Source: an uncultured Thermoleophilaceae bacterium (GTDB lineage: Bacteria > Actinomycetota > Thermoleophilia > Solirubrobacterales > Thermoleophilaceae). Taken from it: DNA of 40,000 nucleotides. Made by a program: the position numbers and the translations under genes. Below, one piece after another: positions 2-29,751 of the stretch. The DNA is taken from positions 539,388 to 579,387 of the forward strand of contig CAWEGB010000008.1 of assembly GCA_963808545.1 (NCBI GenBank), written 5' to 3'. A model generated the notes under the pieces. That model ran no database searches. It was given only the letters and a program-made list of their open reading frames with translations, and was not told the DNA's origin. Each line of letters starts with the position of its first letter. Within the stretch, counting starts at the first letter, position 1.

Positions 2-667
2 CACTCCGGACAGCTGCGTGAGGCGCTGAGCCAGGTGCGGTCGAACCCCGCCCTGCGCGTACCTCTGACCGCCATGGCCGTCGTCGGCACGTTGGCATTC
101 AACTTCCAGGTCGTGCTTCCGCTGATGGCTCGCTATGCCTTCGACGGAGGGGCCGGGACCTACGGCGCGCTCGCCGGAGCGATGGGCGCTGGTGCGATCC
201 TCGGCGCGGTGACCACGGCCGGACGCGGCAACCCGTCGCTGACCGGGCTCGGCGCGACCGCGCTGGCCTTCGGCGCCCTCCTGGCCGCCATAGCCGCGGC
301 GCCCACGCTGGGCCTTGCGCTCGCGGCACTGGTGCTGATGGGAGCCGCTGCCATCTCCTTCACCGCTACGACGAACTCACTGCTCCAGCTCGCTGCGCCG
401 ACCGCGATGCGCGGCCGGGTGATGGCGCTCTGGAGCGTCGTATATCTCGGCTCCACGTGTGTGGGCGGCCCGATCATCGGCTGGGTGTCCGAGCTCGCCG
501 GCCCCCGCGCCGGGCTTGCGCTTGGAGCGGTCGCCACGTTCGCGACCGGTGCCGGCCTGCTCATGGGTGCCGTCCGCCGGCAGCGTGCGGGCGAAGTACC
601 GGCCGCGCATGCCTCCTACGGCGCCTCCGGCGCTCAGACGCGCGCCGGGCGCTTCATCGTGCGATAG
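2..667 (+). CDS. MFS transporter, C-terminal part (5' end outside window)
   Basis: Frame 2 is open from nt 2 with no stop, so the gene starts upstream. The translation is about six Ala/Gly/Leu-rich hydrophobic helices, typical of the second half of a 12-TM MFS (EntS/DUF894-like) protein. Stop at 665-667. Confidence 0.7.
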   Translation, partial: HSGQLREALSQVRSNPALRVPLTAMAVVGTLAFNFQVVLPLMARYAFDGGAGTYGALAGAMGAGAILGAVTTAGRGNPSLTGLGATALAFGALLAAIAAAPTLGLALAALVLMGAAAISFTATTNSLLQLAAPTAMRGRVMALWSVVYLGSTCVGGPIIGWVSELAGPRAGLALGAVATFATGAGLLMGAVRRQRAGEVPAAHASYGASGAQTRAGRFIVR

Positions 668-1731
668 ACGAACTCGTCCGTCGGCCCCGACTCGCGTGCC
701 GAGACGACGCGGTCGTGATGCGGCGAGAACCGGCAGACCGGATCCGTGGCCGCCGCGTCGCCGGTGAGCCGCAGCGCCTGGCAGCGGCAACCGCCGAAGT
801 CCACCTCCTGGCGTCCGAGCGGGCACGTGCGGCATGGCTCCTGCATCCAGTCCGTCCCCCGGAAGCGGGCGAACGCGTCGGACTCGCTCCAGATCCACTC
901 AAGCGGATGCTCGCAAACGTTGGCGAACTCGAGCCCCGGGATCGTCGACGCCGCCTGGCAGGGCAACACATCGCCGTTCGGAGCGACCACAATCGCCGTC
1001 CGGCCCCAGCCACCCATGCATGGCTTCGGCAGGTCCTCATAGAAGTCCGGGAGCACCCAGAGGACGTCGACCTTGGGGCCGACCCGCTCGCGGAAGCGCC
1101 GGACCGCTTCCTCTGCGCGCCGCAGCTGCTCCCAAGATGGCATGAGCGCCTCCTGGTTTGGGACCGCCCAGCCGTAGTACTGCGTATTCGCGAGCTCGAG
1201 CCGCTGCGCCCCGAGATCGATTGCGAGATCGAGCAGCTCCTCGATCCGATCGAGGTTCTGCCTATGCAGCACGCAGTTAATCGTCAGCGGGAAGTCCAGC
1301 TCCTTGACGACGTGCGCGGCCGCGATTTTCTTCTCGAACGACCTGTTGCCGGCGATGCGGTCGTTCTCCGCCGCGTCCGGGCTCTGAATGGAGATCTGCA
1401 CGTGGTCTAGCCCGGCCGACTTCAGCGCCTCGGCGCGCTCGCGGGTGAAGTGGATCCCGGCGGTGATCAGCGACGAGTAGAGGCCGGCGTCGCGCGAACC
1501 CGAGCAGAGCTCGACCAGATCGCGGCGCAGCATCGGCTCACCGCCCGTGAGCGCGAGCTGAAGGACGCCGAGCGCGCGCGCCTGCCGGAAGGTGCGGGTC
1601 CAGTGCTCGGTCTCGAGTTCGCGGCGGTACTTCGCGGCGCCGATGTCGAGCGGGTTCGAGCAGTATGGGCAGTGAAGCGGGCACTGGTAGGACAGCTCGG
1701 CGATCAGCGTTGACGGCCTAAGCAGCTGCAT
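634..1731 (-). CDS. pqqE: PqqE, radical-SAM/SPASM peptide cyclase for PQQ biosynthesis
   Basis: 365-aa ORF starting at ATG 1731. N-terminal radical-SAM CxxxCxxC (CPLHCPYC), GGEP motif and C-terminal SPASM Cys cluster (CRTCP..GGCRCQA). Last gene of a pqqABCDE-ordered block, overlapping the pqqD end by 14 nt. Confidence 0.95.
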   Translation of the reverse strand: MQLLRPSTLIAELSYQCPLHCPYCSNPLDIGAAKYRRELETEHWTRTFRQARALGVLQLALTGGEPMLRRDLVELCSGSRDAGLYSSLITAGIHFTRERAEALKSAGLDHVQISIQSPDAAENDRIAGNRSFEKKIAAAHVVKELDFPLTINCVLHRQNLDRIEELLDLAIDLGAQRLELANTQYYGWAVPNQEALMPSWEQLRRAEEAVRRFRERVGPKVDVLWVLPDFYEDLPKPCMGGWGRTAIVVAPNGDVLPCQAASTIPGLEFANVCEHPLEWIWSESDAFARFRGTDWMQEPCRTCPLGRQEVDFGGCRCQALRLTGDAAATDPVCRFSPHHDRVVSARESGPTDEFVYRTMKRPARV

Positions 1732-1981
1732 CGACCACCAGGCCTCTCTGAGTCAGGCCGTCGACCAGCCCTTGAACGTCATCTCGTAGATCGGAGTCCT
1801 CGTAGCGCGCCGAGAGGGTGCCGACGATTTCGTCGACCGAGCGCTCCCCGTCGCACAGCTCAAGCACCGCCGCCGCTGTGGGGTTGAGCCGCACGGCCCC
1901 CTCGGGGACCAGCAGCACGTGCTCCTCGCGCACCTCGTCATATTGAAGCCGCGCGCCGGTGACGAGCCGGGGGCGGGTCAC
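1718..1981 (-). CDS. pqqD: PqqD, PQQ precursor-peptide chaperone
   Basis: This is the C-terminal 87 codons of the 341-aa track ORF. GTG at 1981 forms a GTGA overlap with the pqqC stop. The sequence (..[29 protein letters not shown]..) is PqqD-like. The upstream part of the track ORF is an alternate frame of pqqC. Confidence 0.85.
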
Positions 1982-2715
1982 GCGTCCGGCCCCGACGGCT
2001 GCGTCTCGCCGCGCTCGATGGCCTCGAGCTGTGCCCACAGCATCTCGGTCTTGAAGCGGAGCGCGGCGACGGCAGTCTCCTGCTGCTCGCGGGTTCGGCA
2101 GCGCTCGACGGTCAGGTCGAGGGCGTACTGCGCATCGCGTGGCGCCTGCACGAGCCGTGTGCGGAAGTACTCGAGCCCGGCGGGGTCGATCCAGTCGTAG
2201 TGCCTCTCGAGTGCGTCGAGCCGCACCCGGATCGCGGCCGGCCCGAAGAGCTCGGTGAGCGATGACGCGACCGCCTCGATCCACGGCTTCTGGCGCGCAA
2301 AGTTCACGTAGGCGTCGACCGCGTAGCGCACGGCGGGCAGCACGCGTCGCTCCGACAGCAGCTCCTCCCGCGAGACCCCGAGCGCCTCGCCGAGGCGTAG
2401 CCACGACTCGATACCCCCCTTTTCGTCGCTCCCGCCGTCGTGGTCGATGATGCGGCCCACCCACTCCCGCCTGACCTCGACGTCGGGGCAGTTTGACAGG
2501 ATCGCCGCATCCTTCAGCGGGATGCACTTCTGGTAGTAGAAGCGGTTCGCAACCCAGCGCTGGAGCTCCTCGCGCGTGAGCTCTCCCGCGTCCATTCGCC
2601 TGTGGAACGGGTGCAGGTTGTGGTAGCGCGTCCCCTGCGCGCGCAGCTGAGCGACGAACTCCGCGGGTGGCCAGGGCGCAGGCTCCGTCGTCGGTCTCGT
2701 CGCGGTCTCGCTCAT
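1978..2715 (-). CDS. pqqC: PqqC, pyrroloquinoline-quinone synthase
   Basis: 245-aa ORF with full-length resemblance to PqqC (..[44 protein letters not shown]..). ATGA overlap with the pqqB stop. Confidence 0.95.
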
Positions 2716-3608
2716 TGCTCGATCTCGAGGCCATCGTAGGCAACTTCCACGCCCGCGACTCGGACCGCCTCGCGCTCGGGGGAGTCCTCGAGCAGTATCG
2801 GGTTCGTATTGTTGATGTGGACGAGCACCGTGCGCGGTCGCTCGAGCCGCGCCAGCCCCTCGAGCGTCCCGCCCGGGCCCGAGAGCGGTAGGTGTCCCAT
2901 GTCGCGGGCGCTACGCGCCGAGATGCCGAGCCGGGCGAGCTCGTCGTCGCGCCAGAAGGTTCCGTCGACGAGCACGGCGTCGCTCGCGGCGAACCGGGTG
3001 AGCATGTCGGCGTCCAGGCGGGCGAGACCGGGAGCGTAGGTCACCACGCCGCCACTCGCTGCGTCGCGGAAGACGAACCCACTGGCCTGAAGCTCGACAT
3101 CCGACCCGTCCAGGTAGCGCGGCGCGTCGCCGCCAGTCTCGAACGGCTCGACCGTGAGGCTCGATCCTCCGAGCGGTCTAACCTGCCCCGGCTCCAGCGT
3201 CCGCCACTCGGCCCCGGAGTAGCGCTTCAGGATCGACAACACGGGATAGCCGCTCCGCAGCGCGCGCTCGACGCCCTCGGCTCCGTAGACGCACACGGGC
3301 GCCGCCGACTCACGCAGAAGCAGCAGCCCGGCGGTGTGGTCGATCTCGGCGTCGGTCAGGAGGACGCCCGCGATCGGGGGCGAGCGCACCCCCTCTGCCT
3401 GACCGGGCGCGAGCGCTTCGAGTTGCTGGCGCGCATCCGGCGAGGCGTTGACCAGAAACCACGGCCCCTCCTCACCGCGAATCGCGAGCGACGACTGCGT
3501 CCGAGGTCGCGCCCGTACACCCTCGCGCCCGGCCTCGCAGGTGCCGCAGCGACAGTTCCACTGCGGAAAGCCTCCGCCGGCGGCCGAGCCGAGAATGCGG
3601 ACGCGCAC
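2712..3608 (-). CDS. pqqB: PqqB, metallo-beta-lactamase-fold PQQ biosynthesis protein
   Basis: 298-aa ORF with a GTG start. The N-terminus [24 protein letters not shown] is characteristic of PqqB. Lies between pqqA and pqqC. Confidence 0.9.
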
Positions 3609-3668: not shown

Positions 3669-3809
3669 CTACCGGTGGTACATGTAGAGGGTGACCTCGC
3701 AACAGAGGTCGACGTACTCGAACTCGGGCTTGACCCACGTGGGACGGGTCTCCGAGGTGACCTCGGAAGAGAGGCCGACGAGCTCAAGCTCGGGCGTGAT
3801 CAACGTCAT
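3669..3809 (-). CDS. pqqA: PqqA, PQQ precursor peptide (46 codons; below the ORF-track size cutoff)
   Basis: Manual translation of the minus strand gives MTLITPELELVGLSSEVTSETRPTWVKPEFEYVDLCCEVTLYMYHR*. ATG at 3809 is preceded by GGAGGAG. The C-terminal E-V-T-L-Y is the conserved Glu-x3-Tyr PQQ core. Lies immediately upstream of pqqB. Confidence 0.8.
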   Translation of the reverse strand: MTLITPELELVGLSSEVTSETRPTWVKPEFEYVDLCCEVTLYMYHR

Positions 3810-3844: not shown

Positions 3845-4357
3845 TCAACCAAGCAGTAGGAACACACCAGACGCCACGAGCAGAGCGACTCCGGCGAACC
3901 GGACCGCGACTGCTCGACTCTGCAGCGCCGGAACCACGCGCGGGAGCACCCCGGCCACGTACAGGCCGACAAGGGCAAGCAGCGCACTGGACAGCGCCTG
4001 CTCCGCGGCGTGCCCGACGAGCGAGCCCGAGTAGTCGCTCGCCACGCCATAGGCGAGGTTGTCCATCGTCAGGGCAAATGGCAACACCCAGACAGCCCAT
4101 GACGCCGTGACCAGTCGCGACCCGGCGGCGACGACGATCAGATAGTACGCCAGCACGGCCAGTGTCCCAACCGCCAGGAACCCGGTCACACTCTCCGAGA
4201 TCGTCCAACCGAGGCCCGCCCCGATCAGGAATGCGGCGCCGTCGGCGGCGGCGAAGAGCGCGGCGAGCGGCAGGCGCCACCGTCGCTCGACAAGCGCACC
4301 GATCGCGAGGCACGCGATAAAGCTGTCAATACCAAGAAGTAAGAAACCCATGCTCAA
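3845..4357 (-). CDS. Integral membrane protein, MntP/YtaF-like (DUF204 repeats)
   Basis: 170-aa ORF with about 5-6 predicted TM helices. Two copies of the DUF204-type motif (LLLGIDSFIACLAIG and FALTMDNLAYGVAS), as in the Mn efflux pump MntP. Lies between the dehydrogenase and pqqA. Confidence 0.55.
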   Translation of the reverse strand: MSMGFLLLGIDSFIACLAIGALVERRWRLPLAALFAAADGAAFLIGAGLGWTISESVTGFLAVGTLAVLAYYLIVVAAGSRLVTASWAVWVLPFALTMDNLAYGVASDYSGSLVGHAAEQALSSALLALVGLYVAGVLPRVVPALQSRAVAVRFAGVALLVASGVFLLLG

Positions 4358-4387: not shown

Positions 4388-6079
4388 TTACTCCTCCGGC
4401 AGCGCGAATACGAACAGGGAGCTTCCCTGACCCGCCCCGAGCATCCCGGGCAAAAACCCTTCCGTCCATGCGCCCCAACCGGTCGGCACGGCGATGTACT
4501 GCCTTCCGTCGATGCTGTAGGACGAGGGGCTGCTGTGGTGGCCGCTGCCACACTGGAAGTGCCACAGCAGCTCCCCGCTCTCGGCGTCGAGCGCGTTGAA
4601 CTCCCCGGTGGGCTCGCCGGCGAACACGAGGTTGCCGCCCGTGGTCAGCACCGATGAGCACATCGGTATGTCATTCGCCCAGCGCCAACGCTCCTCACCC
4701 GTGCGCGGATCGAAGGCGCTCACAGACCCCGCCATGTCCTCGAGGTCCACGGCGACTCCCGCTCCCCAGTACGGGATGCTCTCCTTGAACTCCCTGCGCC
4801 GCCGCGTGGCCGTCGCACCGACGTCCTGCACCGGGGCGTACAACAGCTCGGTGTTCGGGTTGTAGCACGCGTGCGTCCATTCCTTGGCGCCGGCCGGCCC
4901 CGGCCAGAAGTGGACCGGGTCGCCCTCCTTGTCGGGGTAGACCTTAGGCGTCACGTTGCCCTTCTCGTCGACCTCGCCCCAGTCGATGCGGTCGACGAAC
5001 GGCGCCACCCGGACCGGCTCCATGTTCGTGCGATCGAGGATGTAGAGGAACCCGTTCTTGTCGAAGTGCGCCGCCAGCTTCTGCCCGTCGAGGTCGAACA
5101 GGATGTGCTCCATCGTGGAGTCGTAGTCCCACAGGTCGTGCGGGGTGTACTGGAAGTGCGACCGGATCTCGCCGCTGTCAGCGTCCACGGCGACGCCGGA
5201 ATCGGTGTAGAGGTTGTCGCCCTCGCGGACGCCTCCGTCGAAGTCGGGACACGGGTTGCCGGTCCCGAAGTACAGAAGGTTCAGCTCCGGGTCGAAGGTG
5301 CTCGTGACCCAGCAGTTGCCGCCACCCCGCTGCCAGGCCTCGCCTTCGGGCCAGGTCTCGGAGCCCGGCTCTCCGGGCTTCGGCACCATGTAGCACCGCC
5401 ACACGCGCTCGCCGGTCTCGCGCTTGAACGCGTCGGCGTGGCCGCGCACCCCGAATTCCCCGCCGGAGCTCCCGACGATGACCATGTCCTTTACGACCAG
5501 GGGGGCGACCGTGGCGCTCTCGCCGGCCCGCACATCGCCGTACGTCTGGTCCCAGACCTTCTTACCGGTCTCGGCGTCAAGCGCGACGAGGTGGGCGTTC
5601 AGGGTGACGACGAAGACCTTTCCCTCGGCCACGGCGACCCCGCGATTCACGTTGCCGCAGCAGAGCGACACGTCGTACGGGATCGCATGCCTGTACTGCC
5701 ACAGTTGCTCTCCGGTCCGGGCGTCAAGGGCCCAGACCCAGCCATCCCAGCCTGAGACGAACATGGTTCCGTCCACGACGATCGGAGAGGCCTCGAACGA
5801 GTATGTCGATTTGCCCGAGTGCAGGCCCACTGAGCCGCACTGGAAGACCCATGCCGGGGCAAGCCGCTTGACGTTCTCCTTGTTGATCTGGTCTAGCGGG
5901 CTGTAGCGCTGCCCGTCGTAGGCGCCGTAGTAGGTGAGCCAGTTCTGCGGTTCCGAGCGGGCGTCGAGAATGCGCTCGTAGGTGACGTCCTTGGCCACCG
6001 GCGGCGCAATGCCTTTGATGGGGCTCAGAGTTGTGTTGTCGACGGCCTGCCCTGCGTCTACGTACTCCTCGGTTGCCAT
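4388..6079 (-). CDS. xoxF: PQQ-dependent dehydrogenase, methanol/ethanol family, XoxF-like (lanthanide-type signature), no signal peptide
   Basis: 563-aa ORF. ATG 6079 has AGGAG 6 nt upstream; the track start at 6082 is TTG, and an in-frame TAG lies 3 codons further up. Motifs present: vicinal Cys-Cys (SLCCGNVNRG), GGEFGVRG, WQRGGGNCW, GTGNP and HDLWDYDS (D-x-D). Family assignment is high confidence. The xoxF label and the substrate are inferred. Confidence 0.85.
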   Translation of the reverse strand: MATEEYVDAGQAVDNTTLSPIKGIAPPVAKDVTYERILDARSEPQNWLTYYGAYDGQRYSPLDQINKENVKRLAPAWVFQCGSVGLHSGKSTYSFEASPIVVDGTMFVSGWDGWVWALDARTGEQLWQYRHAIPYDVSLCCGNVNRGVAVAEGKVFVVTLNAHLVALDAETGKKVWDQTYGDVRAGESATVAPLVVKDMVIVGSSGGEFGVRGHADAFKRETGERVWRCYMVPKPGEPGSETWPEGEAWQRGGGNCWVTSTFDPELNLLYFGTGNPCPDFDGGVREGDNLYTDSGVAVDADSGEIRSHFQYTPHDLWDYDSTMEHILFDLDGQKLAAHFDKNGFLYILDRTNMEPVRVAPFVDRIDWGEVDEKGNVTPKVYPDKEGDPVHFWPGPAGAKEWTHACYNPNTELLYAPVQDVGATATRRRREFKESIPYWGAGVAVDLEDMAGSVSAFDPRTGEERWRWANDIPMCSSVLTTGGNLVFAGEPTGEFNALDAESGELLWHFQCGSGHHSSPSSYSIDGRQYIAVPTGWGAWTEGFLPGMLGAGQGSSLFVFALPEE

Positions 6080-6122
6080 CAAGTACTCCTATCCACGGTG
6101 GTGGTTGTGCCGAGCGGTCGAT

Positions 6123-6560
6123 CTACGGTTGCGGCTGCGGCGGGCGGTCCAGACGTGCCTCCGGCGGAGCGTCCCCTTGCACGACGATCGCCGCGGTCAA
6201 GCCGCGGCCCTCGTCGTTGCCGGTACGGGAGCCGTACCAGTAGTACCCCGGGCCGTCGAGGGTGAGGTTGGCCGTCCCGCGCGAATGGTTCACCAACCAG
6301 ATGAACTTGTAGTCACCGTTGCACGGCAGGACTGCGCAATGGGTGTTCTTGTCGTCGTTGAAGAACTCGATCTCGACCTCGCCTGCATGGGGCAGGACAA
6401 GGATCCCGGGCTCGAACACCAGCTCGTCCTCCAAGATCCGGACCGTGGCGCGCATCTTGCCGTCGGGTCCCTCCTCGGCCTCCCCGATGCTTCCCCGCCC
6501 GAGCATTCGACCCAACATCGCGCCATTTTGCTTATCCAACAACTCCGCAATCTTGGCCAC
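6123..6560 (-). CDS. Small cupredoxin-like protein lacking the canonical type-1 Cu ligand set
   Basis: 145-aa ORF. GTG start with GAGGA 5 nt upstream. Protein-like composition, unlike the Arg/Pro-rich shadow ORFs. GEVEIEFFNDDKNTHCAVLP and GYYWYGSRTGNDEGRGLTAAIVV resemble the first-His strand and the C-terminal strand of cupredoxin_1-type domains, but the C..H..M ligands are replaced. No signal peptide. Confidence 0.55.
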   Translation of the reverse strand: MAKIAELLDKQNGAMLGRMLGRGSIGEAEEGPDGKMRATVRILEDELVFEPGILVLPHAGEVEIEFFNDDKNTHCAVLPCNGDYKFIWLVNHSRGTANLTLDGPGYYWYGSRTGNDEGRGLTAAIVVQGDAPPEARLDRPPQPQP

Positions 6561-6596: not shown

Positions 6597-7976
6597 CTAA
6601 CACTTTCTCTTGGGCCGCGCGGTCAGCCGCACGCGCTCCCGGCGCGGCTCCTCGAACGTCATGTAACCCCAGTCGAGGGGCGACTCCTGGCGGTAGTTTT
6701 TTCGCAGGGCGCGCGCGATCGTGGCCTTCATCAGCTCCTTCCCGAGGTAGAAGGCGTGCGTGGCCTCGTCGACCCCGAGCTGGTCGAAGATCTCGTTGAA
6801 GTCGGTGCCCTTGACGAACCGGTCGGCGTTGAAGACGTAGATCCAGTCGCTGTCGGCGAAGATGCGGAAATTCGGGTCGGTGACGTGCTCGTGCAGCTCG
6901 CGCAGCTCGGACTCCGCGTAGGGGCGGAGGTCCTCATCCTTCACCGTCAATAGCCGCCCGTCGACGTGCTTGGGGGGCGTGCCGTGCTCCTGCGCGAAGT
7001 GCATGAGCTGCGCCGCCAGCACCGCCTCTCGGACAGCGCCGCGCGCCCACTCGATGACCTCGGTGGTGAGCACGTTGCGGATGCCAAGCTCCTGGCAGAA
7101 GCCGATGAGCAGCGCGGTAACCCCGGTGCTGTCGGCCTCGGTCAGCTCGGTGAGGTTGCCGATCCCCATCAGCATCTCCGCCGCGGGATGACGCCGGCGC
7201 ACCTCCAGGTAGCGCCCGAGGCTGGCCGCGAACCCGATGCCTATCGGCTCGATGATCGGATCGACGAGGTATGGCTTGCCGAGCCGCTCGAGGTGGTCGA
7301 TCGTCGCCTCGAGGCTGCCGAGGTCCTCCGGCGTGTCCGGGATGAGCACGGGCGTCGCGCGCAGGCGCTCGGCAAGGTCGCGGTTGGACCCGTTGAGGCT
7401 GAGGACATAGTCAACGCCCGCCTCGTCGGCCATCAGGATCTCCTCGCGGTCCATCGTGTCGATGCTCAGGGCGAAGCCGCGTTCGCGCAGCTCGGCGATC
7501 ACCGCGGGGCCTTCGTCGAGCCAGCGGCGCTCGAGCGAAAGGCCGAGATCGATCACGTCGGCGCCGGCGTCGCGGTAGTAGCCCGCGAGCTCGAGGATGT
7601 GCTCGCGACTCAGCCTCGGGACGTGGTTGATCTCCGCGAACACGCGGATATCGCGCGGACCGTAGCTGGCGCGGGCGTCGGCCTGACCGAACCAACTCGG
7701 CAGTTGCTTGAGGTCGGCGGGGCCCTTCTCGACGGGGATTCCGAAGCGCTCGGCCAGCACGTCGGTCTCTCCCTCACAGAGGCCGGGGATCATGATCTTC
7801 GTGACCGCTTCGGGGAGTTCGAGGAAGCGCGCGATCCACGTCGTGGTCATCAGCGCGGCGACCGTGATCTTCATCACCGCGACCTCGTAGTCGAACGGCA
7901 GCTCGGTGCGGCCCAGCGTCTCACGCAGCGCCGGCGCGGCGAGCTTGCCGGTTACAAACAGGAGCCGCTCGGCCAC
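6597..7976 (-). CDS. Dihydropteroate-synthase-like protein of H4MPT biosynthesis (pterin-binding domain with N- and C-terminal extensions)
   Basis: 459-aa ORF with a GTG start. The central DAGADVIDLG.. pterin-binding (DHPS) motif region has flanking extra domains, as in the DHPS-like proteins found in methanopterin gene islands. Confidence 0.75.
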   Translation of the reverse strand: MAERLLFVTGKLAAPALRETLGRTELPFDYEVAVMKITVAALMTTTWIARFLELPEAVTKIMIPGLCEGETDVLAERFGIPVEKGPADLKQLPSWFGQADARASYGPRDIRVFAEINHVPRLSREHILELAGYYRDAGADVIDLGLSLERRWLDEGPAVIAELRERGFALSIDTMDREEILMADEAGVDYVLSLNGSNRDLAERLRATPVLIPDTPEDLGSLEATIDHLERLGKPYLVDPIIEPIGIGFAASLGRYLEVRRRHPAAEMLMGIGNLTELTEADSTGVTALLIGFCQELGIRNVLTTEVIEWARGAVREAVLAAQLMHFAQEHGTPPKHVDGRLLTVKDEDLRPYAESELRELHEHVTDPNFRIFADSDWIYVFNADRFVKGTDFNEIFDQLGVDEATHAFYLGKELMKATIARALRKNYRQESPLDWGYMTFEEPRRERVRLTARPKRKC

Positions 7977-8001
7977 GCGCGTGTCCGGGTGCGGCGCTGC
8001 T

Positions 8002-8376
8002 TTAGCGCGAGCCCTTGCTCACGACGAACTTGTTCGGCGTCCCCTCGAGCGCGCTGTCGGGCTCCGGCCGCCACAGCACGTGGTCCTCGATCTCGCGCGC
8101 CAGGGCGAAGTCCTTGTCGGTGATGCCACCGCTCGAGTGCGTCTGCAGCTTCACCCACACCTTGCCCCAGGTCACGGCCAGGTCGGGGTGATGGTAGGCC
8201 GCCTCGGACAGGTAGCCGACCGTGTTGACGAGCATGAGCGTTGTAGGCCAGCCGTCGGTGTTGTACTTGCGCCGCAGCCACCCGCCGTCGAGGTACCAAC
8301 CGTCGAGGCCGTCCTCCTGGATCTTGGCCTCGACCTCCTCGTCCGTGTACGGCTCGAGCTTTACATTCGTCTCCAC
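8002..8376 (-). CDS. Pterin-4a-carbinolamine dehydratase (PCD/DcoH) family protein
   Basis: 124 codons from GTG 8376, preceded by AAGGAGG 8 nt upstream. An alternative GTG at 8400 forms a TAGTG overlap with the SDR stop. The sequence ..GWPTTLMLVNTVGYLSEAAYHHPDLAVTWGKVWVKLQTH.. is PCD-like. The upstream part of the 194-aa track ORF is not coding. Confidence 0.75.
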   Translation of the reverse strand: METNVKLEPYTDEEVEAKIQEDGLDGWYLDGGWLRRKYNTDGWPTTLMLVNTVGYLSEAAYHHPDLAVTWGKVWVKLQTHSSGGITDKDFALAREIEDHVLWRPEPDSALEGTPNKFVVSKGSR

Positions 8377-8399
8377 TGCGATCGCCTCCTTCGAGGGCA

Positions 8400-9182
8400 C
8401 TACATCACAACGCCGCCGTTGACGTAGATGGCCTGACCGGTGACGAACGCGGCCTCGGGTGACGCGAGCCAGAGCGCGGCCGCGGCGACGTCCTCCGGCC
8501 GGCCCCAGCGTGCGAGCGGCGTGGACTCCGCGACCGAGCGGTGGAACTCGCGGTCGACCTCCCGCGCGAACTCGGTCTCGATCCACCCCGGGCAGAGCAC
8601 GTTGACGCGAACCAGGGGCGCTTGGCCACGCGCCAGGCTCTTGCTGAAGGCGAGCACGCCGCCTTTGACGGTGCTGAACAGCTCGGGGTTCTCGCCAGCC
8701 ATTCCAGCGAGCACGTGGTCCCAGCTCATGTTCACGATGGTCCCACCGGTGGGCTGCTCGCGCATCACCTCACCGGCGGCGTACGAGCACGCGACGGTCC
8801 CCTTGAGGTCGACCGCCAGCAGGAGGTCGAGCTTTCGCTCCCAGCCGCAGTCGGCTGCCTCGCCGGTCAGCACATCCGCGCCGGCGTTGTTCACCCACAC
8901 GTCGAGGCCGCCCAGCTGTTCCCGCGCATGCTCCACCAGCGCCTCGCAGGCGCCGCGGGTACTGAGATCCGCCTGGGCCAGTAGTGCGCGGCCACCGAGG
9001 CGCGCGATCCGCTCGGCGACCGCCGACGCCCCCTTCGCACTGTCCCGGTGCGTCACGAGCACGGCTGCGCCTGCGCCGCCGAACGCCTCGGCGATCGCGG
9101 CGCCGATGCCGCTGCTCGCGCCGGTGACCACGGCCCGCACCCCGTCGAGCCGGCGCCCGCCGATCTGGGCCACCTGGGTCAT
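8400..9182 (-). CDS. Short-chain dehydrogenase/reductase (SDR) with atypical active-site segment
   Basis: 260-aa ORF with TGASSGIGAAIA Rossmann motif, NNAG and IVNMS. Where YxxxK is expected the sequence reads F-S-T-V-K. First gene of the long minus-strand operon. Confidence 0.85.
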   Translation of the reverse strand: MTQVAQIGGRRLDGVRAVVTGASSGIGAAIAEAFGGAGAAVLVTHRDSAKGASAVAERIARLGGRALLAQADLSTRGACEALVEHAREQLGGLDVWVNNAGADVLTGEAADCGWERKLDLLLAVDLKGTVACSYAAGEVMREQPTGGTIVNMSWDHVLAGMAGENPELFSTVKGGVLAFSKSLARGQAPLVRVNVLCPGWIETEFAREVDREFHRSVAESTPLARWGRPEDVAAAALWLASPEAAFVTGQAIYVNGGVVM

Positions 9183-10110
9183 GAGCCTGCCCGACTATAC
9201 GATGCCCCAGATGCCGGTCAAGCAGGGCCCGCGCCGCAGCCCGGCCTCGACGGCCGGGGTCGCCCGTCTCGGCCCCGAGGACGTCGCGCGCGCCGCGCAG
9301 CTGGCCTGTGTGCTGGAGGCAAGCGCCGAGAAGCCGGGCAACATCACGCCGAGCCACGACTTCGATGACACCACGTACGAGGACATGCTGTACAGCGGGA
9401 TCGCGCTCGGCCCCGAGCTCGGCCGCGCGGGTGAGCGCGGAGTCGGCGAGACGGTGCTGGCCGCCGTTCGCGCCTCGCGCGACGCCGTCGGCGCCAACAC
9501 CAACCTCGGCATCGCGCTGCTGCTTGCTCCGCTCGCGCGAGCGGAGCTCGGAACGTGCGGCGGACCGCTGCGCGAGCGCCTCGCCAACGTGCTGCGTGCG
9601 CTGACCGTCGAGGACGCGCGAGACGCTTACGCCGCGATCCGCGTGGCGGGCCCCGGCGGCCTCGACGAGCCGGTCGAGCACGACGTGCGCGAGGACCCCC
9701 GCGTGACGCTGCGCGAGGCCATGGCGGCGGCGGCTCAGCGCGACACAATCGCGAGCGAGTACATCACCGACCACGCGGTCACCTTCGAGCTCGGGCTGCC
9801 CGCCCTCGCCAATTCGCTGGGCGACGGGCTGCGTCCGCGCGACGCAATCGTCGAGTTGGCCCTGTGCCTGGTCGCCGCCGTGCCCGACACGCTGATCGCC
9901 CGCAAGCGCGGCGCGGAAGCGGCGGGTCGAGTGTCGGCGGGAGCGCGGCGAGTGCTCGCCGCAGGTGGCGTGCGGAAGGCCGGAGGCTGGACCGCGTTGG
10001 CCGAATTCGACGCCTCGCTACGCGAGGACGGCAACGCGCTCAATCCGGGGACCACGGCCGATCTCGTGACCTCCGTGCTCTTCGTGGCGCTGCTGGAGGG
10101 CGTGCTCTGA
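9181..10110 (+). CDS. Triphosphoribosyl-dephospho-CoA synthase (CitG/MdcB) family protein, H4MPT/methylofuran-island type
   Basis: This is the C-terminal ~300 codons of the 556-aa track ORF. Motifs ..EKPGNITP.., GANTNLGIALLLAPL and NPGTTADL are CitG-like. Start is uncertain: ATG 9181, 9202 or 9211. The upstream part of the track ORF is antisense to the SDR gene. Confidence 0.75.
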   Translation: MSLPDYTMPQMPVKQGPRRSPASTAGVARLGPEDVARAAQLACVLEASAEKPGNITPSHDFDDTTYEDMLYSGIALGPELGRAGERGVGETVLAAVRASRDAVGANTNLGIALLLAPLARAELGTCGGPLRERLANVLRALTVEDARDAYAAIRVAGPGGLDEPVEHDVREDPRVTLREAMAAAAQRDTIASEYITDHAVTFELGLPALANSLGDGLRPRDAIVELALCLVAAVPDTLIARKRGAEAAGRVSAGARRVLAAGGVRKAGGWTALAEFDASLREDGNALNPGTTADLVTSVLFVALLEGVL

Positions 10111-10115
10111 GCCAC

Positions 10116-11273
10116 GTGGGTGAGCCGATCCTGCTGGTCTCGGTCAGCGCGCGCATGCTCGCCGAGCTGGGGGTGAGAGCCGGGCACGACGTCGTGGCGC
10201 TCGACCGCTTCGGAGACCTCGACCTGCAGCGGCTTTGCCCGACCGTGTCCGTGCTGCGCGACCTCGGCGGACGGGGCGGGATGGCGGCGCTGGTGGACGC
10301 GGCGGAGAAGATCCCCGCGCCGAGCGTGATCTACGGCGCGGGACTCGAGAACCGGCCGGATCTTGTCGCCCGGCTGGCTGCCGGCAGGCGGCTGCTCGGG
10401 TGTACCCGCGAGACGCTCGAGCGGGTGCGCGACCCTGCTGTGCTGGGCGCGTCCCTGCGCGCGGCCGGCCTCGCCTACCCGTTGACGTTCGGCGCTCGCG
10501 ACGCACCGCGGCGGGCGGAGCGCTCCCGCCGCTGGCTGCGCAAGCCGGTGCGCGGCGGCGGCGGACGCGGCGTTCGCGAGTGGCGCGGGGGGGCGCTGGA
10601 CCGGGAAGACATCGTGCAGGAGCACATCTCGGGACTCGCATGCTCGGCGGCGGCGGTCGCCGACGGGCGCTCCGCCATCGTGCTCGCTGTGAGCGAGCAG
10701 CTGATCGGGCACCGCGGGCTCGGCGCGCGCGGCTATGCGTGGTGCGGCAACCTCGTGCCGCCGCGGCTCGGAGAGGCGCAGCGACGCGCGCTGGCCGTCG
10801 CCGCGCGGACGATCTGCGCGCACCTGGCGCTCGCGTTCGGACTGCGCGGGCTGTTCGGCGTAGACCTCGTGTGGGACGGCCAGCGCGCCTGGGTCGTCGA
10901 GGTCAACCCGCGTCCGACGGCGTCGCTCGAATGCGTCGAGGAGGCGCACGAGGTCGGCGTCTTCGCCGCCCACCTGGAGGGTTGCGGCGGACGCCTGCCG
11001 TCGATCGCTTCCGCTCGAACACCGCGCCGGGCCGCCGGCAAGGCGATCCTCTTCGCCACGGAGGGCGTGCGCGTCGGTGACACCCGCGGCTGGCCGGCGC
11101 GCGGCATCCGCGACGTGCCTTACCCGCGCGAGCGGGTCGCCGCCGGTCACCCGATCTGCACCCTCGTCTCGATTCAGGAGTCCCCGGATGCGGTTCTCGC
11201 CGATCTCGAGGCGCGCGCCGCCGCGCTCCGCGCCGAGCTTCGTCAGTGCGCCGGGATCCGTGCCCCCGCCTGA
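10116..11273 (+). CDS. ATP-grasp domain protein (cofactor-biosynthesis ligase, MfnD/Orf17-like)
   Basis: GTG 10116 lies 5 nt after the preceding stop. 385 aa with ATP-grasp features (..LRKPVRGGGGRGV.., ..GLFGVDLVWDGQRAWVVEVNPRPTASLE..). The upstream 187 aa of the track ORF is an alternate frame of the CitG-like gene. Confidence 0.75.
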   Translation: MGEPILLVSVSARMLAELGVRAGHDVVALDRFGDLDLQRLCPTVSVLRDLGGRGGMAALVDAAEKIPAPSVIYGAGLENRPDLVARLAAGRRLLGCTRETLERVRDPAVLGASLRAAGLAYPLTFGARDAPRRAERSRRWLRKPVRGGGGRGVREWRGGALDREDIVQEHISGLACSAAAVADGRSAIVLAVSEQLIGHRGLGARGYAWCGNLVPPRLGEAQRRALAVAARTICAHLALAFGLRGLFGVDLVWDGQRAWVVEVNPRPTASLECVEEAHEVGVFAAHLEGCGGRLPSIASARTPRRAAGKAILFATEGVRVGDTRGWPARGIRDVPYPRERVAAGHPICTLVSIQESPDAVLADLEARAAALRAELRQCAGIRAPA

Positions 11274-11296
11274 CGGGCCTATGCTCACGCCGGACC

Positions 11297-12247
11297 GTGA
11301 CGCTCTCGCTCAACGATCGCGCCCAGGAGCTCGCCGACCGCCTCGCCGCCGAGGCCGACGCGCTGCGCTTGAACGTGACAACGCTGCCTGGCGGCACGCG
11401 GTTGATCGACTGCGGCAGCGAAGTTCCCGGCGGGCTCGAGGCAGGACGGCGCTTCGCCGAGATCAGCATGGCCGGCCTCGGCACGGTGTCGTTCGCCCCG
11501 CTCGTGCTCCAGGGCAGCTGGCTCCCGGGGCTCACGGTGGTAACCGATCGCCCTGCGCTCGCCTGTCTGGCGTCCCAGTACGCGGGCTGGCGCCTGGATC
11601 GCGACGAGTACTTCGCCATGGCCAGCGGGCCGGGCCGGGCGCTGATTCGGGCCGAGGAGCTCTACAGCGACCTCGAGGTCGACGAGCGCGCGCGGAGCGC
11701 GGTGCTGTGCCTCGAAACGCGCGAACCGCCGCCGGAGCCGGTCGCCGACTACGTGGCCGAGCGAGCCGGCCTGACGGCCGCGGATCTGACGCTGCTGTTC
11801 GCGCCGACCGCGAGCTTGGCGGGCGGCGTGCAGGTTGCCGCGCGCGTCGTCGAGACCGCGCTGCACAAGCTGCACGAGCTCGAATTCGACGTCGGGCGCG
11901 TGGTGAGCGGCTTCGGGAGTTGCCCGCTGCCGCCGGTCGCCAAGAAGGACCCCGAGGCGATCGGTCGGACGAACGACGCGGTGCTCTACGGCGGCCAGGT
12001 CGAGCTGACCATCGATGCCCCCGACGAAGAGCTCGAGGCGGTCGTGCCGCGCCTGCCGGCCTCGGCCTCGGACGATTACGGTGGGCCGTTTGGCGACGTA
12101 CTCGAGCGGGCGGACTGGGACTTCTACAAGATCGACCCGCTGCTCTTCAGTCCTGCCGAGGTGCGCCTCGTGAGCACGGCGAGCGGACGCAGCTTTCACG
12201 CCGGTGGCGTGGACATCGGGGTCCTCGAGCGGTCCTTTCGGGGATGA
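11297..12247 (+). CDS. mch: Methenyl-tetrahydromethanopterin cyclohydrolase
   Basis: About 316 aa from GTG 11297 (alternative GTG 11246). Full-length Mch resemblance (SLNDRAQELADRL.., ..LACLASQYAGW.., ..NDAVLYGG..). ATGA overlap with the next gene. Confidence 0.9.
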   Translation: MTLSLNDRAQELADRLAAEADALRLNVTTLPGGTRLIDCGSEVPGGLEAGRRFAEISMAGLGTVSFAPLVLQGSWLPGLTVVTDRPALACLASQYAGWRLDRDEYFAMASGPGRALIRAEELYSDLEVDERARSAVLCLETREPPPEPVADYVAERAGLTAADLTLLFAPTASLAGGVQVAARVVETALHKLHELEFDVGRVVSGFGSCPLPPVAKKDPEAIGRTNDAVLYGGQVELTIDAPDEELEAVVPRLPASASDDYGGPFGDVLERADWDFYKIDPLLFSPAEVRLVSTASGRSFHAGGVDIGVLERSFRG

Positions 12248-12825: not shown

Positions 12826-13763
12826 CGTCGGTTCGCGTGAAGGCGCCCGCGCGTCTGCACATGGGCATGCTTGACGCCGCCGGCGGCGGCGTCCGGCGCT
12901 TCGGCGGCCTCGGGGTCGCCCTCAGCCGCCCCGCCGCGGTCGTCGAGGCGAGCCCGAGCGACGACGTGACCGCCGAGGGCCCTGATGCCGAGCGCGCGCT
13001 CGCCATCGCCCGTCGCTCTAGGGAGGCGCTCGGGCTCTCGGGCGGCGCGCACGTGCGCGTGATGGAGGCGATCCCGCCTCATGTCGGCCTCGGCTCGGGG
13101 ACCAAGCTCGGGCTCGCCGTGGCGGCGGCCCTGGCGGCGCTGGCGGGGCAGACGGCGGAGCCCGAGACGATCGCCCGCGCGGCCGGGCGCGGCGCGCGCT
13201 CCGCGGTCGGCCTGTGGACATTCGTCCTCGGCGGACTGGTCGTGGAGGGCGGCCGGCGTCCCGGCGTGGAGCGCCCAGCCCCGCTGCTCACTCGTCATGC
13301 CATGCCCGGCGAATGGCGCTGCGTGCTCGTGATCCCAGACGCTGAGCCGGGACTCTCGGGGCGGGCGGAGGAGCAGGCGTTCGGGGAGCTGCGTCCCGAC
13401 CCCGACCGCGCCGCGCTGATCGCCCAGCTGGTGCTGACCTCGCTGCTCCCGGGGCTCGCCGAGGGCGGCCTCGCCGAGTTCGGGGACGCCCTCACACGTA
13501 TCCAGCGGCTTGTGGGTGAGTCGTTCGCCTCCGTTCAGGGGGGTGTGTTCCATCCGCGCGCGGGCGACGTTGTCGACACGCTGCTCCGCCTTGGGGCGGC
13601 GGGCGCGGGGCAGAGCTCGTGGGGACCCGCCGCTTACGGGATCGTCGAAGACGAGCCGGCGGGGCGCGAGCTTGCCCGCGGTATCGAGGCCGAGCTGGCC
13701 GGGCGCGGCCGCGTGGAGGTCGTGGGCTTCGACAATCGTGGCGCTCGAGTGGAGGCGGGATGA
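12822..13763 (+). CDS. Beta-ribofuranosylaminobenzene 5'-phosphate (beta-RFAP) synthase family protein, GHMP-kinase fold
   Basis: 313-aa ORF. GHMP motif PPHVGLGSGTKLGLAVAAA and N-terminus VKAPARLHMGMLD, as in archaeal-type beta-RFAP synthases (MptG). A paralogous kinase function cannot be excluded. Confidence 0.75.
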   Translation: MTSVRVKAPARLHMGMLDAAGGGVRRFGGLGVALSRPAAVVEASPSDDVTAEGPDAERALAIARRSREALGLSGGAHVRVMEAIPPHVGLGSGTKLGLAVAAALAALAGQTAEPETIARAAGRGARSAVGLWTFVLGGLVVEGGRRPGVERPAPLLTRHAMPGEWRCVLVIPDAEPGLSGRAEEQAFGELRPDPDRAALIAQLVLTSLLPGLAEGGLAEFGDALTRIQRLVGESFASVQGGVFHPRAGDVVDTLLRLGAAGAGQSSWGPAAYGIVEDEPAGRELARGIEAELAGRGRVEVVGFDNRGARVEAG

Positions 13764-14464
13764 GGCTGCTGGTGAGCGTCATCGACGCCGACGAGGCGCG
13801 CGTGGCCGTCGACGCGGGCGTCGACATCGTCGACGTCAAGAACCCCGCCGAGGGCTCGCTGGGCGCCCCCGCCCCCGGAGTGATCGAGCGAGTCCGGGAG
13901 GTCGTGCCGCCGGAGCACCCGGTCAGCGCCGCGATCGGCGACCTGCCAAACCTGCCCGGCACAGCCGCGCTCGCCGCGCTGGGCGCAGCGCGCTCCGGCG
14001 CCGCGTACGTGAAGGTCGGGCTGTGGGGGACGTCTACCACGGATGAGGCCGTGGCGGTCCTGCGCGCGGTGCGCGACGCGCTCGACGGCGGGGCGGCCGT
14101 GATCGCGGCCGCCTACGCCGACGCCGAGCGCGTGCCCGGCGGGCCTCTGCCGCCCGGGGCCGTCGTCGCGGCCGCACAGAGCGCGGGCGTAGGGGGCTGC
14201 CTGCTCGACACCGCGCTCAAGGACGGCCGCGGGCTGTTCGAATGGCTCACCCCGGAAGCGCTCGCGGCGCTGGTGGCCGAGGGGCACGCCGCGGACCTCG
14301 AGATGGCGCTCGCCGGAGCCCTGCACGCCGACGACCTGAGCGTTGTCCGGGGGACCGGCGCCGACATAGCCGGCGTTCGCTCGGCGGCCTGCCGCGACGG
14401 TCGGCGCACGGAGCCGCTCGACGCCGAGCGAATCGAGCGGCTGCGCGCCATGTGCCAGCGCTAA
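13760..14464 (+). CDS. (5-formylfuran-3-yl)methyl phosphate synthase (MfnB)/DUF556 family protein
   Basis: 234 codons from ATG 13760 (ATGA overlap). MRLLVSVIDADEARVAVDAGVDIVDVKNPAEGSLGA.. is typical of the MfnB family, which makes the furan moiety of methanofuran/methylofuran. Confidence 0.8.
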   Translation: MRLLVSVIDADEARVAVDAGVDIVDVKNPAEGSLGAPAPGVIERVREVVPPEHPVSAAIGDLPNLPGTAALAALGAARSGAAYVKVGLWGTSTTDEAVAVLRAVRDALDGGAAVIAAAYADAERVPGGPLPPGAVVAAAQSAGVGGCLLDTALKDGRGLFEWLTPEALAALVAEGHAADLEMALAGALHADDLSVVRGTGADIAGVRSAACRDGRRTEPLDAERIERLRAMCQR

Positions 14465-14504: not shown

Positions 14505-15437
14505 CTACGCGGCCACGTGCGGCTCGATGAGCCCGACCGCCGCCAGCCGGTGGTGACACATGTCCGCGATGTGCTCGCGCGTCGCATCCGTGACGGCGTC
14601 GCCCCAGACCGAGGCGGCCTCCTCGGCCCGCGCCAGCAGGTCGTCGATGAGCTCTCGGGAGGGCTGGGCCTCGATCAGGCAGCGCAGGCCGAAGCCGATG
14701 TGCCAGCGCTCGTCGAGCTCGACGCGCCGAACGCCCTCGCGTACCCCGGGCAGGGCGTCGTCGGCCAGGTCTTCGCGCAGCGCGTGATGCGCGGCGTCGA
14801 AGATGATCCCCTCGAGCACCATGTGGTAGAGGGCGATGCCCTCGCTCAGCCCGGCGCGCCCCGCAGAGAGCTCGGCGGCCAGCGCGGGCAGCCGCTCCTC
14901 AAAGAGCTCGAGCACGCCGGGGGGGACGTGGGCCCGCGCGGCGGCACGCCGCTTGGCCGGGGTGTCTCCGGGCACGCCGAGCACCTCGGCGGCAATGCGG
15001 TCGAAGAACCGCGCGTGGCGGTCCTCGTCGCGGCGCTGCAGGAAGAAGACCCAGGCCATCAGGCTCTCCTGGGAGGCCAAAGTCGCCTCCCTGGCCGCTT
15101 CGGCGAACGGCGTGATGTGCTCGGAGACCGCGTCCTCGGCCACGCAGAAGCCGGCGAGAAGAGTCATCAGGCGGCGGCGGCGCGCATCCGGAAGCTCCGG
15201 CCACGCGCGCGTGTCCTGGGTGAGGTCGATGGCCGCCGGATTCCACTGCAGGCGGGCCACGACCTTCGAGAAGAAGCTGGGCCAGAAGCTGCGCTTTGGG
15301 AGGACGAAGTGCCCGCCCACCGTACGCTCCCAGAACTGCTCGTCAGCCATGGCGGGCAAGGTACCAAGCGAGATCCGATGTTCCCAGATCTCGTCGAGCG
15401 GTTGCGCCCGTGTGCGGACGCTAACTAGGCGACGCAC
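14505..15437 (-). CDS. Ferritin-like diiron-carboxylate protein, ribonucleotide-reductase R2-like (R2lox/R2c-type, Phe at radical-Tyr position)
   Basis: 310-aa ORF (GTG 15437; alternative ATG 15350). R2 hallmarks: W-NPAAIDLTQD, ligand motifs CVAED, DEDRH (ExxH), VLEGIIF and DERWH (ExxH). The residue four after the first His is Phe (HARFF). No R1 subunit gene nearby. Confidence 0.75.
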   Translation of the reverse strand: MRRLVSVRTRAQPLDEIWEHRISLGTLPAMADEQFWERTVGGHFVLPKRSFWPSFFSKVVARLQWNPAAIDLTQDTRAWPELPDARRRRLMTLLAGFCVAEDAVSEHITPFAEAAREATLASQESLMAWVFFLQRRDEDRHARFFDRIAAEVLGVPGDTPAKRRAAARAHVPPGVLELFEERLPALAAELSAGRAGLSEGIALYHMVLEGIIFDAAHHALREDLADDALPGVREGVRRVELDERWHIGFGLRCLIEAQPSRELIDDLLARAEEAASVWGDAVTDATREHIADMCHHRLAAVGLIEPHVAA

Positions 15438-18785: not shown

Positions 18786-18806
18786 TGGCGCCCCGCAGGC
18801 GCAAGA

Positions 18807-25472: not shown

Positions 25473-25584
25473 CCGCGCGCCGGAGCATACCCAGCCGAGG
25501 ACGGTGACCCGCTCTGCGCCGGACCGCTACGCCGCGCTAGACTCGCGCCCCCCTCACGCAGACCCGAGAGAGAGGTGCGCACAC

Positions 25585-29447: not shown

Positions 29448-29751
29448 CCCGGAGCCCCAGCCATGTCGCAGACCACCGAGTTCACCGACCTCGACGCGGT
29501 ACGAGGACACCGCCGCGTTCACCGCGGTGTGGACGTCTCAGCTCGAGCTGCGCAATACGCTCTGACGCCGGTCGCCTCGACTCTCGGGCGCTGGCGCCAT
29601 TCAGCGGCGAGCTGACTCAGCGAGCGCTGAGCAGCAGGCCGGCTGACGCAAGTGCGCAGCTCTTGCGGCAGGCGCGCCTCTCTTCCCTGTGCCTGCGCAG
29701 AATTGACCGCCGGATTTGCCTCGCGGCCCACTCGATATCGTTGGTTGCGCC

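Follow-up and report, generated by a model that had tools for sequence, protein, structure and literature searches.

The locus and its gene pair

The window analysed here, a 40-kb stretch of a Thermoleophilia-like genome, is as a whole a methylotrophy island. On its minus strand, at 6123..6560, the open reading frame (ORF) listing and translation give a 145-aa protein (145 codons, GTG start), called the partner below, encoded directly upstream of a pyrroloquinoline quinone (PQQ)-dependent dehydrogenase of the methanol/ethanol family. We propose, with a probability of roughly 0.55, that the partner is a cupredoxin-derived, copper-less accessory subunit dedicated to this enzyme, itself a putative cytoplasmic lanthanide/PQQ methanol dehydrogenase.

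The codon bias of the partner ORF is that of a genuine gene (GC content 0.86 at third and 0.43 at second codon positions, in sequence of ~70% GC). The ORF opens at the first start codon past an in-frame stop and therefore leaves no room for an N-terminal signal peptide; the N-terminus is not hydrophobic (maximum Kyte-Doolittle hydropathy 1.06 over the first 70 residues, 19-residue window). The dehydrogenase ORF (4388..6082) is co-oriented and begins 40 bp after the partner if read from its TTG, or 43 bp after it if read from the ATG at 6079, which is the likely start, with AGGAG in front. An earlier prediction made from the sequence, hereafter the original prediction, had described a 145-aa product without a signal peptide, co-oriented with the dehydrogenase across a 40-bp gap; these features are borne out, with a gap of 40-43 bp, and the sequence stretches that it quoted occur in the translation.

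Family membership

Hidden Markov model (HMM) searches, proposed as a check in the original prediction, place the partner far above the cut-offs of two curated families: Pfam PF23509 (MSMEG_3727_PQQ-assoc; 1.3e-72, 242.7 bits, cut-off 27), matched at full length, and NCBIfam TIGR04339 (MSMEG_3727 family PQQ-associated protein, of type hypoth_equivalog; 2.3e-73, 244.9 bits, cut-off 75), matched over model positions 11-151 of 151. PF23509 is its sole Pfam match at E <= 0.01, and no cupredoxin or other metal-site HMM matched the window partner itself in that scan. There are ~2,000 homologues at 90% clustering, many of them annotated 'PQQ system protein'. The partner is thus a typical member of TIGR04339/PF23509 and not a new family. 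The novelty once claimed for it has to be given up, since the family already bears a PQQ-associated name and its Mycobacterium smegmatis cluster is already in the literature (PMC3023750, PMC6529628).

The window gene shows no difference from the M. smegmatis family (cluster MSMEG_3721-3727), lying in the same position directly upstream of a TIGR03075 dehydrogenase and within a PQQ biosynthesis cluster. Haft (2011) described MSMEG_3726 as the lone PQQ alcohol dehydrogenase, inside the PQQ biosynthesis cassette (PMC3023750). Krishnamoorthy et al. (2019) noted MSMEG_3721-3727 and found that growth on ethanol needs mycofactocin and not these genes, the PQQ genes being dispensable for ethanol growth of M. 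smegmatis in standard medium (PMC6529628). No experimental work on the MSMEG_3727 family was found in the literature searched.

Cupredoxin fold

An AlphaFold2 (AF2) model of the partner was built on 45 family sequences. Its mean predicted local distance difference test score (pLDDT) is 70.5, with block means of 78-92 over residues 21-100, dropping to 54-70 where the former ligand loop and the last strand lie and to <50 in residues 1-19 and the C-terminal tail, so that both termini appear disordered. When the model was used as a Foldseek query against the PDB, 50/50 matches listed were cupredoxin-fold proteins or domains. The best was auracyanin (6kol; E 1.2e-5, probability 1.00; query-normalised template modelling score ~0.5, the disordered termini included), and others listed were CueO/laccase domains, Cupredoxin_1 protein 4hcf, CupA (4f2e), the CuA domain of N2O reductase, FtrB and AcoP. 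Independently of the model, a family sequence profile reached Geobacillus nitrite reductase in its type-1 copper domain (4.5e-5), pseudoazurin (4.8e-4) and plastocyanins, and in these matches the ligand columns lined up. The predicted fold of the partner is therefore a cupredoxin-type beta-sandwich; the cupredoxin-like core originally proposed agrees both with the Foldseek matches listed and with the reach of the profile to type-1 copper domains. Four multi-repeat matches from the search of representatives (P0207, P0228, P0236 and P0244) were set aside as Ig-like/cadherin repeat proteins, that is, generic beta-sandwich noise.

Two branches that differ in their copper ligands

An exhaustive search of representatives returned few distinct full-length clusters. 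Among them is a second branch (P0150, P0151, P0157, P0190, P0224), whose members have N-terminal lipoprotein signal peptides and carry YWFGCPVANHAGRGM as their loop. With P0150 as seed, a further search gave ~1,100 proteins from Gemmatimonadaceae, Thermoanaerobaculia and others, all of which match PF23509; one tested member (the L083 protein, P0359) also passes the TIGR04339 cut-off. Members of this lipoprotein branch, from Gemmatimonadota and Acidobacteriota, carry L-x-G/S-C lipoboxes in their signal peptides, and some give weak matches to Cupredoxin_1, Cu-oxidase_2 and Copper-bind.

Ligands were counted in 120 sequences per branch. The lipoprotein branch has His at position 74, Cys at 111, His at 116 and Met at 121, each in 120/120 sequences, which by alignment is the pattern of a textbook type-1 copper site. 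At the same positions the actinobacterial branch, to which the window partner belongs, has His, Ser, Asp and Leu, likewise in 120/120 each. Aligning the loop of copper-retaining members (YWFGCPVANHAGRGM) with that of the window (YWYGSRTGNDEGRGL) gives the replacements Cys to Ser111, His to Asp116 and Met to Leu121, in line with the loss of the C-terminal Cys/His/Met loop already suspected. Of the marks of an exported type-1 copper protein the partner thus keeps the fold and His74, and lacks the Cys, the second His, the Met and the export signal. Since three of the four ligands are gone throughout the actinobacterial branch, the role of blue-copper electron carrier is untenable there; the idea of an electron acceptor in the form of a copper protein, raised in the original prediction, fits the lipoprotein branch instead.

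That prediction had further pointed to an H-C-x4-C motif. The residues H74-C75-x4-C80 are present and the His is kept, but they do not form a conserved unit. At position 75 the close actinobacterial homologues all carry Cys (120/120), the copper branch has Met, Ile or Ala instead, and the remoter copper-less representatives P0127 and P0131 have lost the Cys; at position 80 the 120 close homologues divide into 90 with Cys and 30 with Ser.

Two exported representatives with lipoboxes have other ligand sets, Ser/Gln/Met in P0178 and Asp/His/Met in P0194; copper-ligand change is therefore not strictly tied to signal-peptide loss. In Gemmatimonadaceae loci (L081:7448-8582, L082:2086-3268) the dehydrogenase is preceded by a tandem pair of PF23509 paralogues (180-196 aa and 193 aa), of which the upstream one in L081 gives weak Cupredoxin_1 and Cu-oxidase_2 matches. 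That the family falls into an exported, copper-bearing branch and a signal-less, copper-less one, in step with compartment, appears to be undescribed.

Linkage to the dehydrogenase

The dehydrogenase has no upstream space for a signal peptide, and its maximum hydropathy is 0.25. It carries a vicinal Cys-Cys and a WDYD motif (Table 1), the latter found in 53/53 orthologues of the actinobacterial branch. The second Asp of WDYD (D-x-D, two after the catalytic Asp) is a lanthanide-type signature according to the literature. Classified by TIGR03075 together with D-x-D, the window enzyme is a predicted lanthanide-type (XoxF-like) dehydrogenase.

A relative of the partner was found in 303 species-level genomes, from which the best 80 loci were taken, mostly of Thermoleophilaceae, Solirubrobacterales and other Actinomycetota. 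The dehydrogenase is on the same strand in 77/80, starting ~430-490 nt after the partner start. The three exceptions are one contig of 2.6 kb and two loci without a dehydrogenase match covering at least half of the query. The linkage extends to other phyla: 3/3 copper-branch proteins looked up (six loci; Gemmatimonadota, Acidobacteriota) are encoded directly upstream of a PQQ dehydrogenase. The co-occurrence with the dehydrogenase, which the original prediction proposed to analyse, is very strong and reaches beyond Actinomycetota. The copper-branch dehydrogenases are 59-60% identical to the window enzyme and have WDYD and Cys-Cys in common with it, along with lipoprotein signal peptides of their own. 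Since orthologous dehydrogenases stand behind both branches, the gene pair must be ancient, and in the actinobacterial branch both of its proteins are together without export signals. Longer family matches, considered as possible Rosetta-stone fusions of partner and dehydrogenase, were rejected as fragments or as chimeras with Chorismate_bind and DUF4142.

We infer from sequence that partner and dehydrogenase are both cytoplasmic. The actinobacterial dehydrogenases have a median of 9 cysteines, mostly variable, versus 3-5 in the copper branch, which fits a reducing compartment. Cysteines at residues 256 and 510 (C510 in 53/53, C256 in 51/53) are missing from the exported orthologues; the others vary among Cys, Ala and Thr. 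Actinobacterial PQQ dehydrogenases of this type, having neither a cytochrome nor a functional cupredoxin as acceptor, also seem to be undescribed.

Conservation of the partner

By sequence conservation the partner is under strong purifying selection. Its ORF is intact in 80/80 loci, its identity across loci (72-93%) matches that of the enzyme (71-92%), compared with 44-86% for PqqB, and 67 positions are invariant in the 45 partner sequences. The residues invariant across both branches concentrate in the ligand loop and both termini, the latter being disordered in the AF2 monomer. In the core these are H74 and the loop residues N115, G118, R119 and G120. In the N-terminal segment (LDKQNGAMLGRMLGRG) N12 is invariant and D9 and G23 are nearly so; in the proline-rich C-terminal tail (PPEARLDRPPQPQP) P132, A135, D138, R139 and P140 are invariant and Q142 and P145 nearly so. 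Both terminal segments are candidate docking elements.

Genomic surroundings

The partner and the dehydrogenase belong to one co-oriented string on the minus strand: a short-chain dehydrogenase/reductase (SDR), a pterin dehydratase-like gene, a dihydropteroate-synthase-like gene, the partner, the dehydrogenase, a 168-aa membrane protein and pqqA-E (Table 1). A promoter-like match just upstream of the SDR could drive the string down to pqqE.

Table 1. Features of the window, with the evidence for each
Feature	Position	Strand	Basis or remark
Stop codon of the 145-aa partner gene	6123-6125	(-)	
Conserved proline-rich C-terminal tail, residues 132-145	6126..6167	(-)	candidate docking peptide
Cupredoxin-type beta-sandwich core, residues 25-127	6180..6488	(-)	AF2, Foldseek and profile search
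Former copper-ligand loop, residues 111-121 (SRTGNDEGRGL)	6198..6230	(-)	columns align with Cu nitrite reductase
Codons of His74 (kept first ligand position) and Cys75	6336..6341	(-)	
Conserved N-terminal segment, residues 8-23	6492..6539	(-)	low-confidence AF2 helix; candidate docking element
PQQ-dependent methanol/ethanol-family dehydrogenase, without signal peptide	4388..6079	(-)	TIGR03075, 613 bits, cut-off 480
WDYD motif of dehydrogenase	5120-5131	(-)	
Vicinal Cys-Cys of dehydrogenase	5657-5662	(-)	
168-aa six-helix membrane protein	3845..4351	(-)	directly downstream of dehydrogenase; unnamed family
pqqA	3669-3809	(-)	E-x3-Y motif only (...CEVTLY...); no HMM match
pqqB	2712-3608	(-)	NCBIfam equivalog above cut-off
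pqqC	1978-2715	(-)	NCBIfam equivalog above cut-off
pqqD	about 1718-1990	(-)	NCBIfam equivalog above cut-off
pqqE	634-1731	(-)	NCBIfam equivalog above cut-off
Dihydropteroate-synthase-like protein	6597-7976	(-)	Pfam/NCBIfam
Pterin-4a-carbinolamine-dehydratase-like protein	8002-8586	(-)	Pfam/NCBIfam
SDR	8400-9182	(-)	Pfam/NCBIfam
Promoter-like site, sigma-70-like TTGACC-16-TATAGT	9221-9194	(-)	10/12, consensus match only; just upstream of SDR
Mch	11246-12247		
4-(Hydroxymethyl)-2-furancarboxaldehyde-phosphate (4-HFC-P) synthase	13619-14464		
PabB-like (aminodeoxychorismate-synthase-like) gene	17919-20945		
Fhc-like genes (FhcC/D/A-like)	20873-24233, possibly to 25472		
Fae	about 25510-26097		
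MtdB-like gene	26125-26988		
folE2-type GTP cyclohydrolase	29716-30759		

The three genes upstream of the partner (6597..9182) are probably related to tetrahydromethanopterin (H4MPT). In ~44/80 loci pterin-type genes of this kind accompany the gene pair, arranged in either of two ways. In Solirubrobacterales-type loci the pterin dehydratase gene is on the opposite strand, and there (L060:5559-7463) the dihydropteroate-synthase-like gene, with its DUF6513 and pterin-binding parts, is a single 634-aa ORF, of which the N-terminal ~190 residues are the region that matches the window SDR by tblastn. A pterin redox cycle as electron sink, suggested by these neighbours, was dropped, as Fae, the MtdB-like gene, Mch, Fhc and an MptA-like gene place them in the one-carbon metabolism of H4MPT and methanofuran.

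Further genes of the window are CitG-like, GHMP-kinase-like and DUF1464 genes, ATP-grasp ligases and a RimK-like ligase; the MptA-like gene belongs to the window or to related loci. A 517-aa minus-strand ORF at 9735-11288 is probably no gene, the plus strand there encoding CitG-like and ATP-grasp proteins. At 14505-15437 (minus strand) lies a ferritin-like di-iron protein that resembles R2-like ligand-binding oxidase (NCBIfam 3e-22, below cut-off); its homologues occur in 26/80 loci, and in Solirubrobacteraceae-type loci stand just upstream of the partner (e.g. L017:8870-9715).

A six-frame scan of the 40 kb for CxxCH gave two matches, neither of them in a plausible gene (one is antisense to the dehydrogenase and the other runs across a stop). 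Pfam and NCBIfam scans of the candidate genes, with ~30.8-31.7 and 38.0-38.9 kb unscanned, found no XoxJ/MxaJ-type (family-3) binding protein and no MxaI. The absence from the island of a CxxCH cytochrome, xoxJ/mxaJ and mxaI, as read from the sequence before, holds in both kinds of scan.

The membrane protein after the dehydrogenase

The 168-aa membrane protein is found in the same position and strand in 56/80 loci (e.g. L060:12318-12830, L053:12319-12834); in Streptosporangiaceae-type loci pqqB, and not the membrane-protein gene, follows ~250 bp after the dehydrogenase. Its ~797 homologues are all 'hypothetical' and none has a Pfam domain. Helices 1, 2 and 4 each contain an invariant Asp (GIDS, ADG and DN motifs). 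An MntP-like assignment is no more than a weak lead, with no Pfam match even at E <= 1 and a single YtaF (MntP-like) match at E 0.01. An AF2 model (pLDDT 67) had no Foldseek match below E 0.1, and a sequence search of the PDB gave no match. Possible roles of the protein are cation transport or anchoring of the dehydrogenase to the membrane.

Thermoanaerobaculia-type copper-branch loci (L083:10312-12102, L084:5044-6834) have a TonB-dependent receptor directly after the dehydrogenase. The membrane protein and this receptor may each reflect metal supply to the compartment of the enzyme.

Comparison with known systems

The textbook picture of PQQ alcohol and methanol dehydrogenases is one of periplasmic enzymes passing electrons to a dedicated c-type cytochrome. 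Like XoxG/MxaG, XoxJ/MxaJ and MxaI, the window partner holds the position of an accessory gene beside xoxF. Unlike them, it has no CxxCH, no family-3 binding-protein or MxaI match, and an unrelated fold.

Type-1 copper cupredoxins also accept electrons from quinoprotein dehydrogenases, amicyanin from methylamine dehydrogenase and azurin or pseudoazurin from some alcohol and amine dehydrogenases. The family resembles them in its beta-sandwich fold, in being a small protein encoded beside a dehydrogenase, and in the full His/Cys/His/Met site of its lipoprotein branch, for which the pair of methylamine dehydrogenase and amicyanin would be the best functional analogy. The window partner differs in its Ser/Asp/Leu, in having no export signal, and in conserved N- and C-terminal peptides that are atypical of soluble cupredoxins.

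In CyoA, subunit II of the cytochrome bo3 quinol oxidase, a cupredoxin module lost its copper ligands when the redox partner changed, and was kept in the complex. This copper-less domain would be the best functional analogy for the actinobacterial branch, although it is a domain of a membrane oxidase subunit, is unlinked to PQQ enzymes and belongs to another sequence family. CupA of Streptococcus pneumoniae, a Cu(I) chaperone, matches the partner model in structure (4f2e, Foldseek E 6.1e-5) and puts the cupredoxin fold to use in metal handling. It acts on the cytoplasmic side and binds Cu(I) through Cys and Met; the window partner has no equivalent Cys/Met cluster, and sequence identity is 15%.

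Proposed role of the partner

Cupredoxins dock to their redox partners by the face that surrounds the His ligand. We suggest that the conserved core function of the family is docking on the dehydrogenase by the former copper-site face, in a physical complex where the termini would act as clamps. In the diderm copper branch the lipoprotein would do the work of cytochrome cL and receive the electrons of the dehydrogenase. In the actinobacterial branch docking would have been kept and copper lost, the partner serving the stability of the dehydrogenase, its activity or gating, or its electron output and coupling to an acceptor. A hydrogen-bond network of His74, Ser111 and Asp116, placed at the point where the ligands would converge in the predicted site, may stand in for the metal. 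From its gene context, the dehydrogenase would make formaldehyde from methanol, to be passed to the H4MPT pathway encoded nearby.

Several points weigh against a copper-less accessory subunit. The replacement residues S111, D116 and E117, plus D69, N72, H58 and C75, are invariant among close homologues, which would also fit a re-tooled metal- or ligand-binding site; invariance at the former metal site is weakly informative because ~46% of positions are invariant in the tight actinobacterial branch. AF2 confidence is poorest in the key loop, with residues 115-118 at pLDDT <50. The cytoplasmic location is drawn solely from the absence of signals, and no natural fusion of partner and dehydrogenase was found among the longer family matches. 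Finally, a subunit with no cofactor leaves the re-oxidation of a cytoplasmic PQQ enzyme unexplained.

Alternative explanations

The first alternative takes up the re-tooled metal site. The partner would be a metallochaperone or metal-insertion factor whose scaffold binds a hard cation (Ln3+ or Ca2+) and hands it to the dehydrogenase in the cytoplasm, the soft Cys/His/Met having been swapped for the oxygen donors Ser111 and Asp116, with Glu117, Asp69, Asp70 and Asn115 nearby; the cation would perhaps be received from the membrane protein encoded after the dehydrogenase. The acidic and amide residues that never vary at the former metal site would suit this, as would the lanthanide-type WDYD in 53/53 dehydrogenase orthologues and the presence of CupA, a metallochaperone of cupredoxin fold, among the Foldseek matches listed. 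So would the six-helix protein with its invariant intramembrane Asp, which follows the dehydrogenase in 56/80 loci and has a TonB-dependent receptor in its place in a copper-branch locus. However, the copper branch likewise conserves N68 and D70, which are hence ancestral structural residues, and Ln3+ usually has 7-9 coordinating oxygens (bioRxiv preprint), for which a set of three or four protein ligands is small. The transporter assignment is weak, given YtaF at E 0.01 and neither Pfam nor structural match, and the gene is not directly after the dehydrogenase in Streptosporangiaceae-type loci. The docking elements that the partner has in common with the copper branch are not obviously needed by a chaperone, and on balance we consider this role unlikely.

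We hold it equally doubtful that the partner is an electron acceptor with some other redox centre, built from His74, Cys75, Asp116 and Ser111 (e.g. mononuclear Fe or non-blue Cu) or supplied by an organic cofactor. Its gene sits exactly where the copper-type, acceptor-like relatives are encoded, the window encodes nothing else that is obviously an electron acceptor, and the close homologues have kept H74 and gained C75 in 120/120 cases. But C75 is lost in the remoter P0127 and P0131 and C80 may be Cys or Ser, no cupredoxin or metal-site HMM matches the window partner, and no redox-protein family is known to us to carry a His/Asp/Ser site on a cupredoxin scaffold.

A bolder combination of these elements is also conceivable, albeit improbable. 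Actinomycetota would have a three-part module made up of a lanthanide/PQQ methanol dehydrogenase in the cytoplasm or at its face, a re-tooled cupredoxin, and the six-helix membrane protein; the cupredoxin would be a lanthanide binding or loading subunit, or else an adaptor to the membrane protein, which would be a metal transporter or a quinone-linked anchor. If true, the partner would be the first cupredoxin to serve a quinoprotein functionally without copper, and PQQ-dependent methanol oxidation would have a route that needs neither a periplasm nor a c-type cytochrome.

The partner might instead handle PQQ, taking it from cytoplasmic biosynthesis and loading or holding it in the dehydrogenase. 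Its gene shares a single co-oriented string with pqqABCDE and with the one PQQ enzyme that the island encodes, and the database names 'PQQ-associated' and 'PQQ system protein' point the same way. This is very unlikely, as no pqq genes lie within 10 kb of the gene pair in ~30/80 loci, none of the known PQQ-binding motifs was recognised in the partner, and the exported copper-branch lipoproteins with their intact copper site point to electron transfer as the ancestral function. A decaying, functionless relic of a copper protein would account for the missing signal peptide and for the disappearance of three ligands out of four, but is effectively refuted by conservation, that is, by 72-93% identity across Thermoleophilia families and other Actinomycetota, by 67 positions that never vary among 45 sequences, by ORFs that are intact in 80/80 loci, by strong codon bias and by the ~2,000 homologues at 90% clustering.

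Significance

The family is already catalogued, so the window gene in itself is no discovery. The gene pair occurs in ~300 species-level genomes, mostly of soil Thermoleophilia/Solirubrobacterales, and in Gemmatimonadota and Acidobacteria the copper-bearing sister branch is a candidate for a blue-copper protein that replaces cytochrome cL. Learning what the partner does would reveal how lanthanide/PQQ chemistry is used by monoderm bacteria and how PQQ is re-oxidised within the cell.

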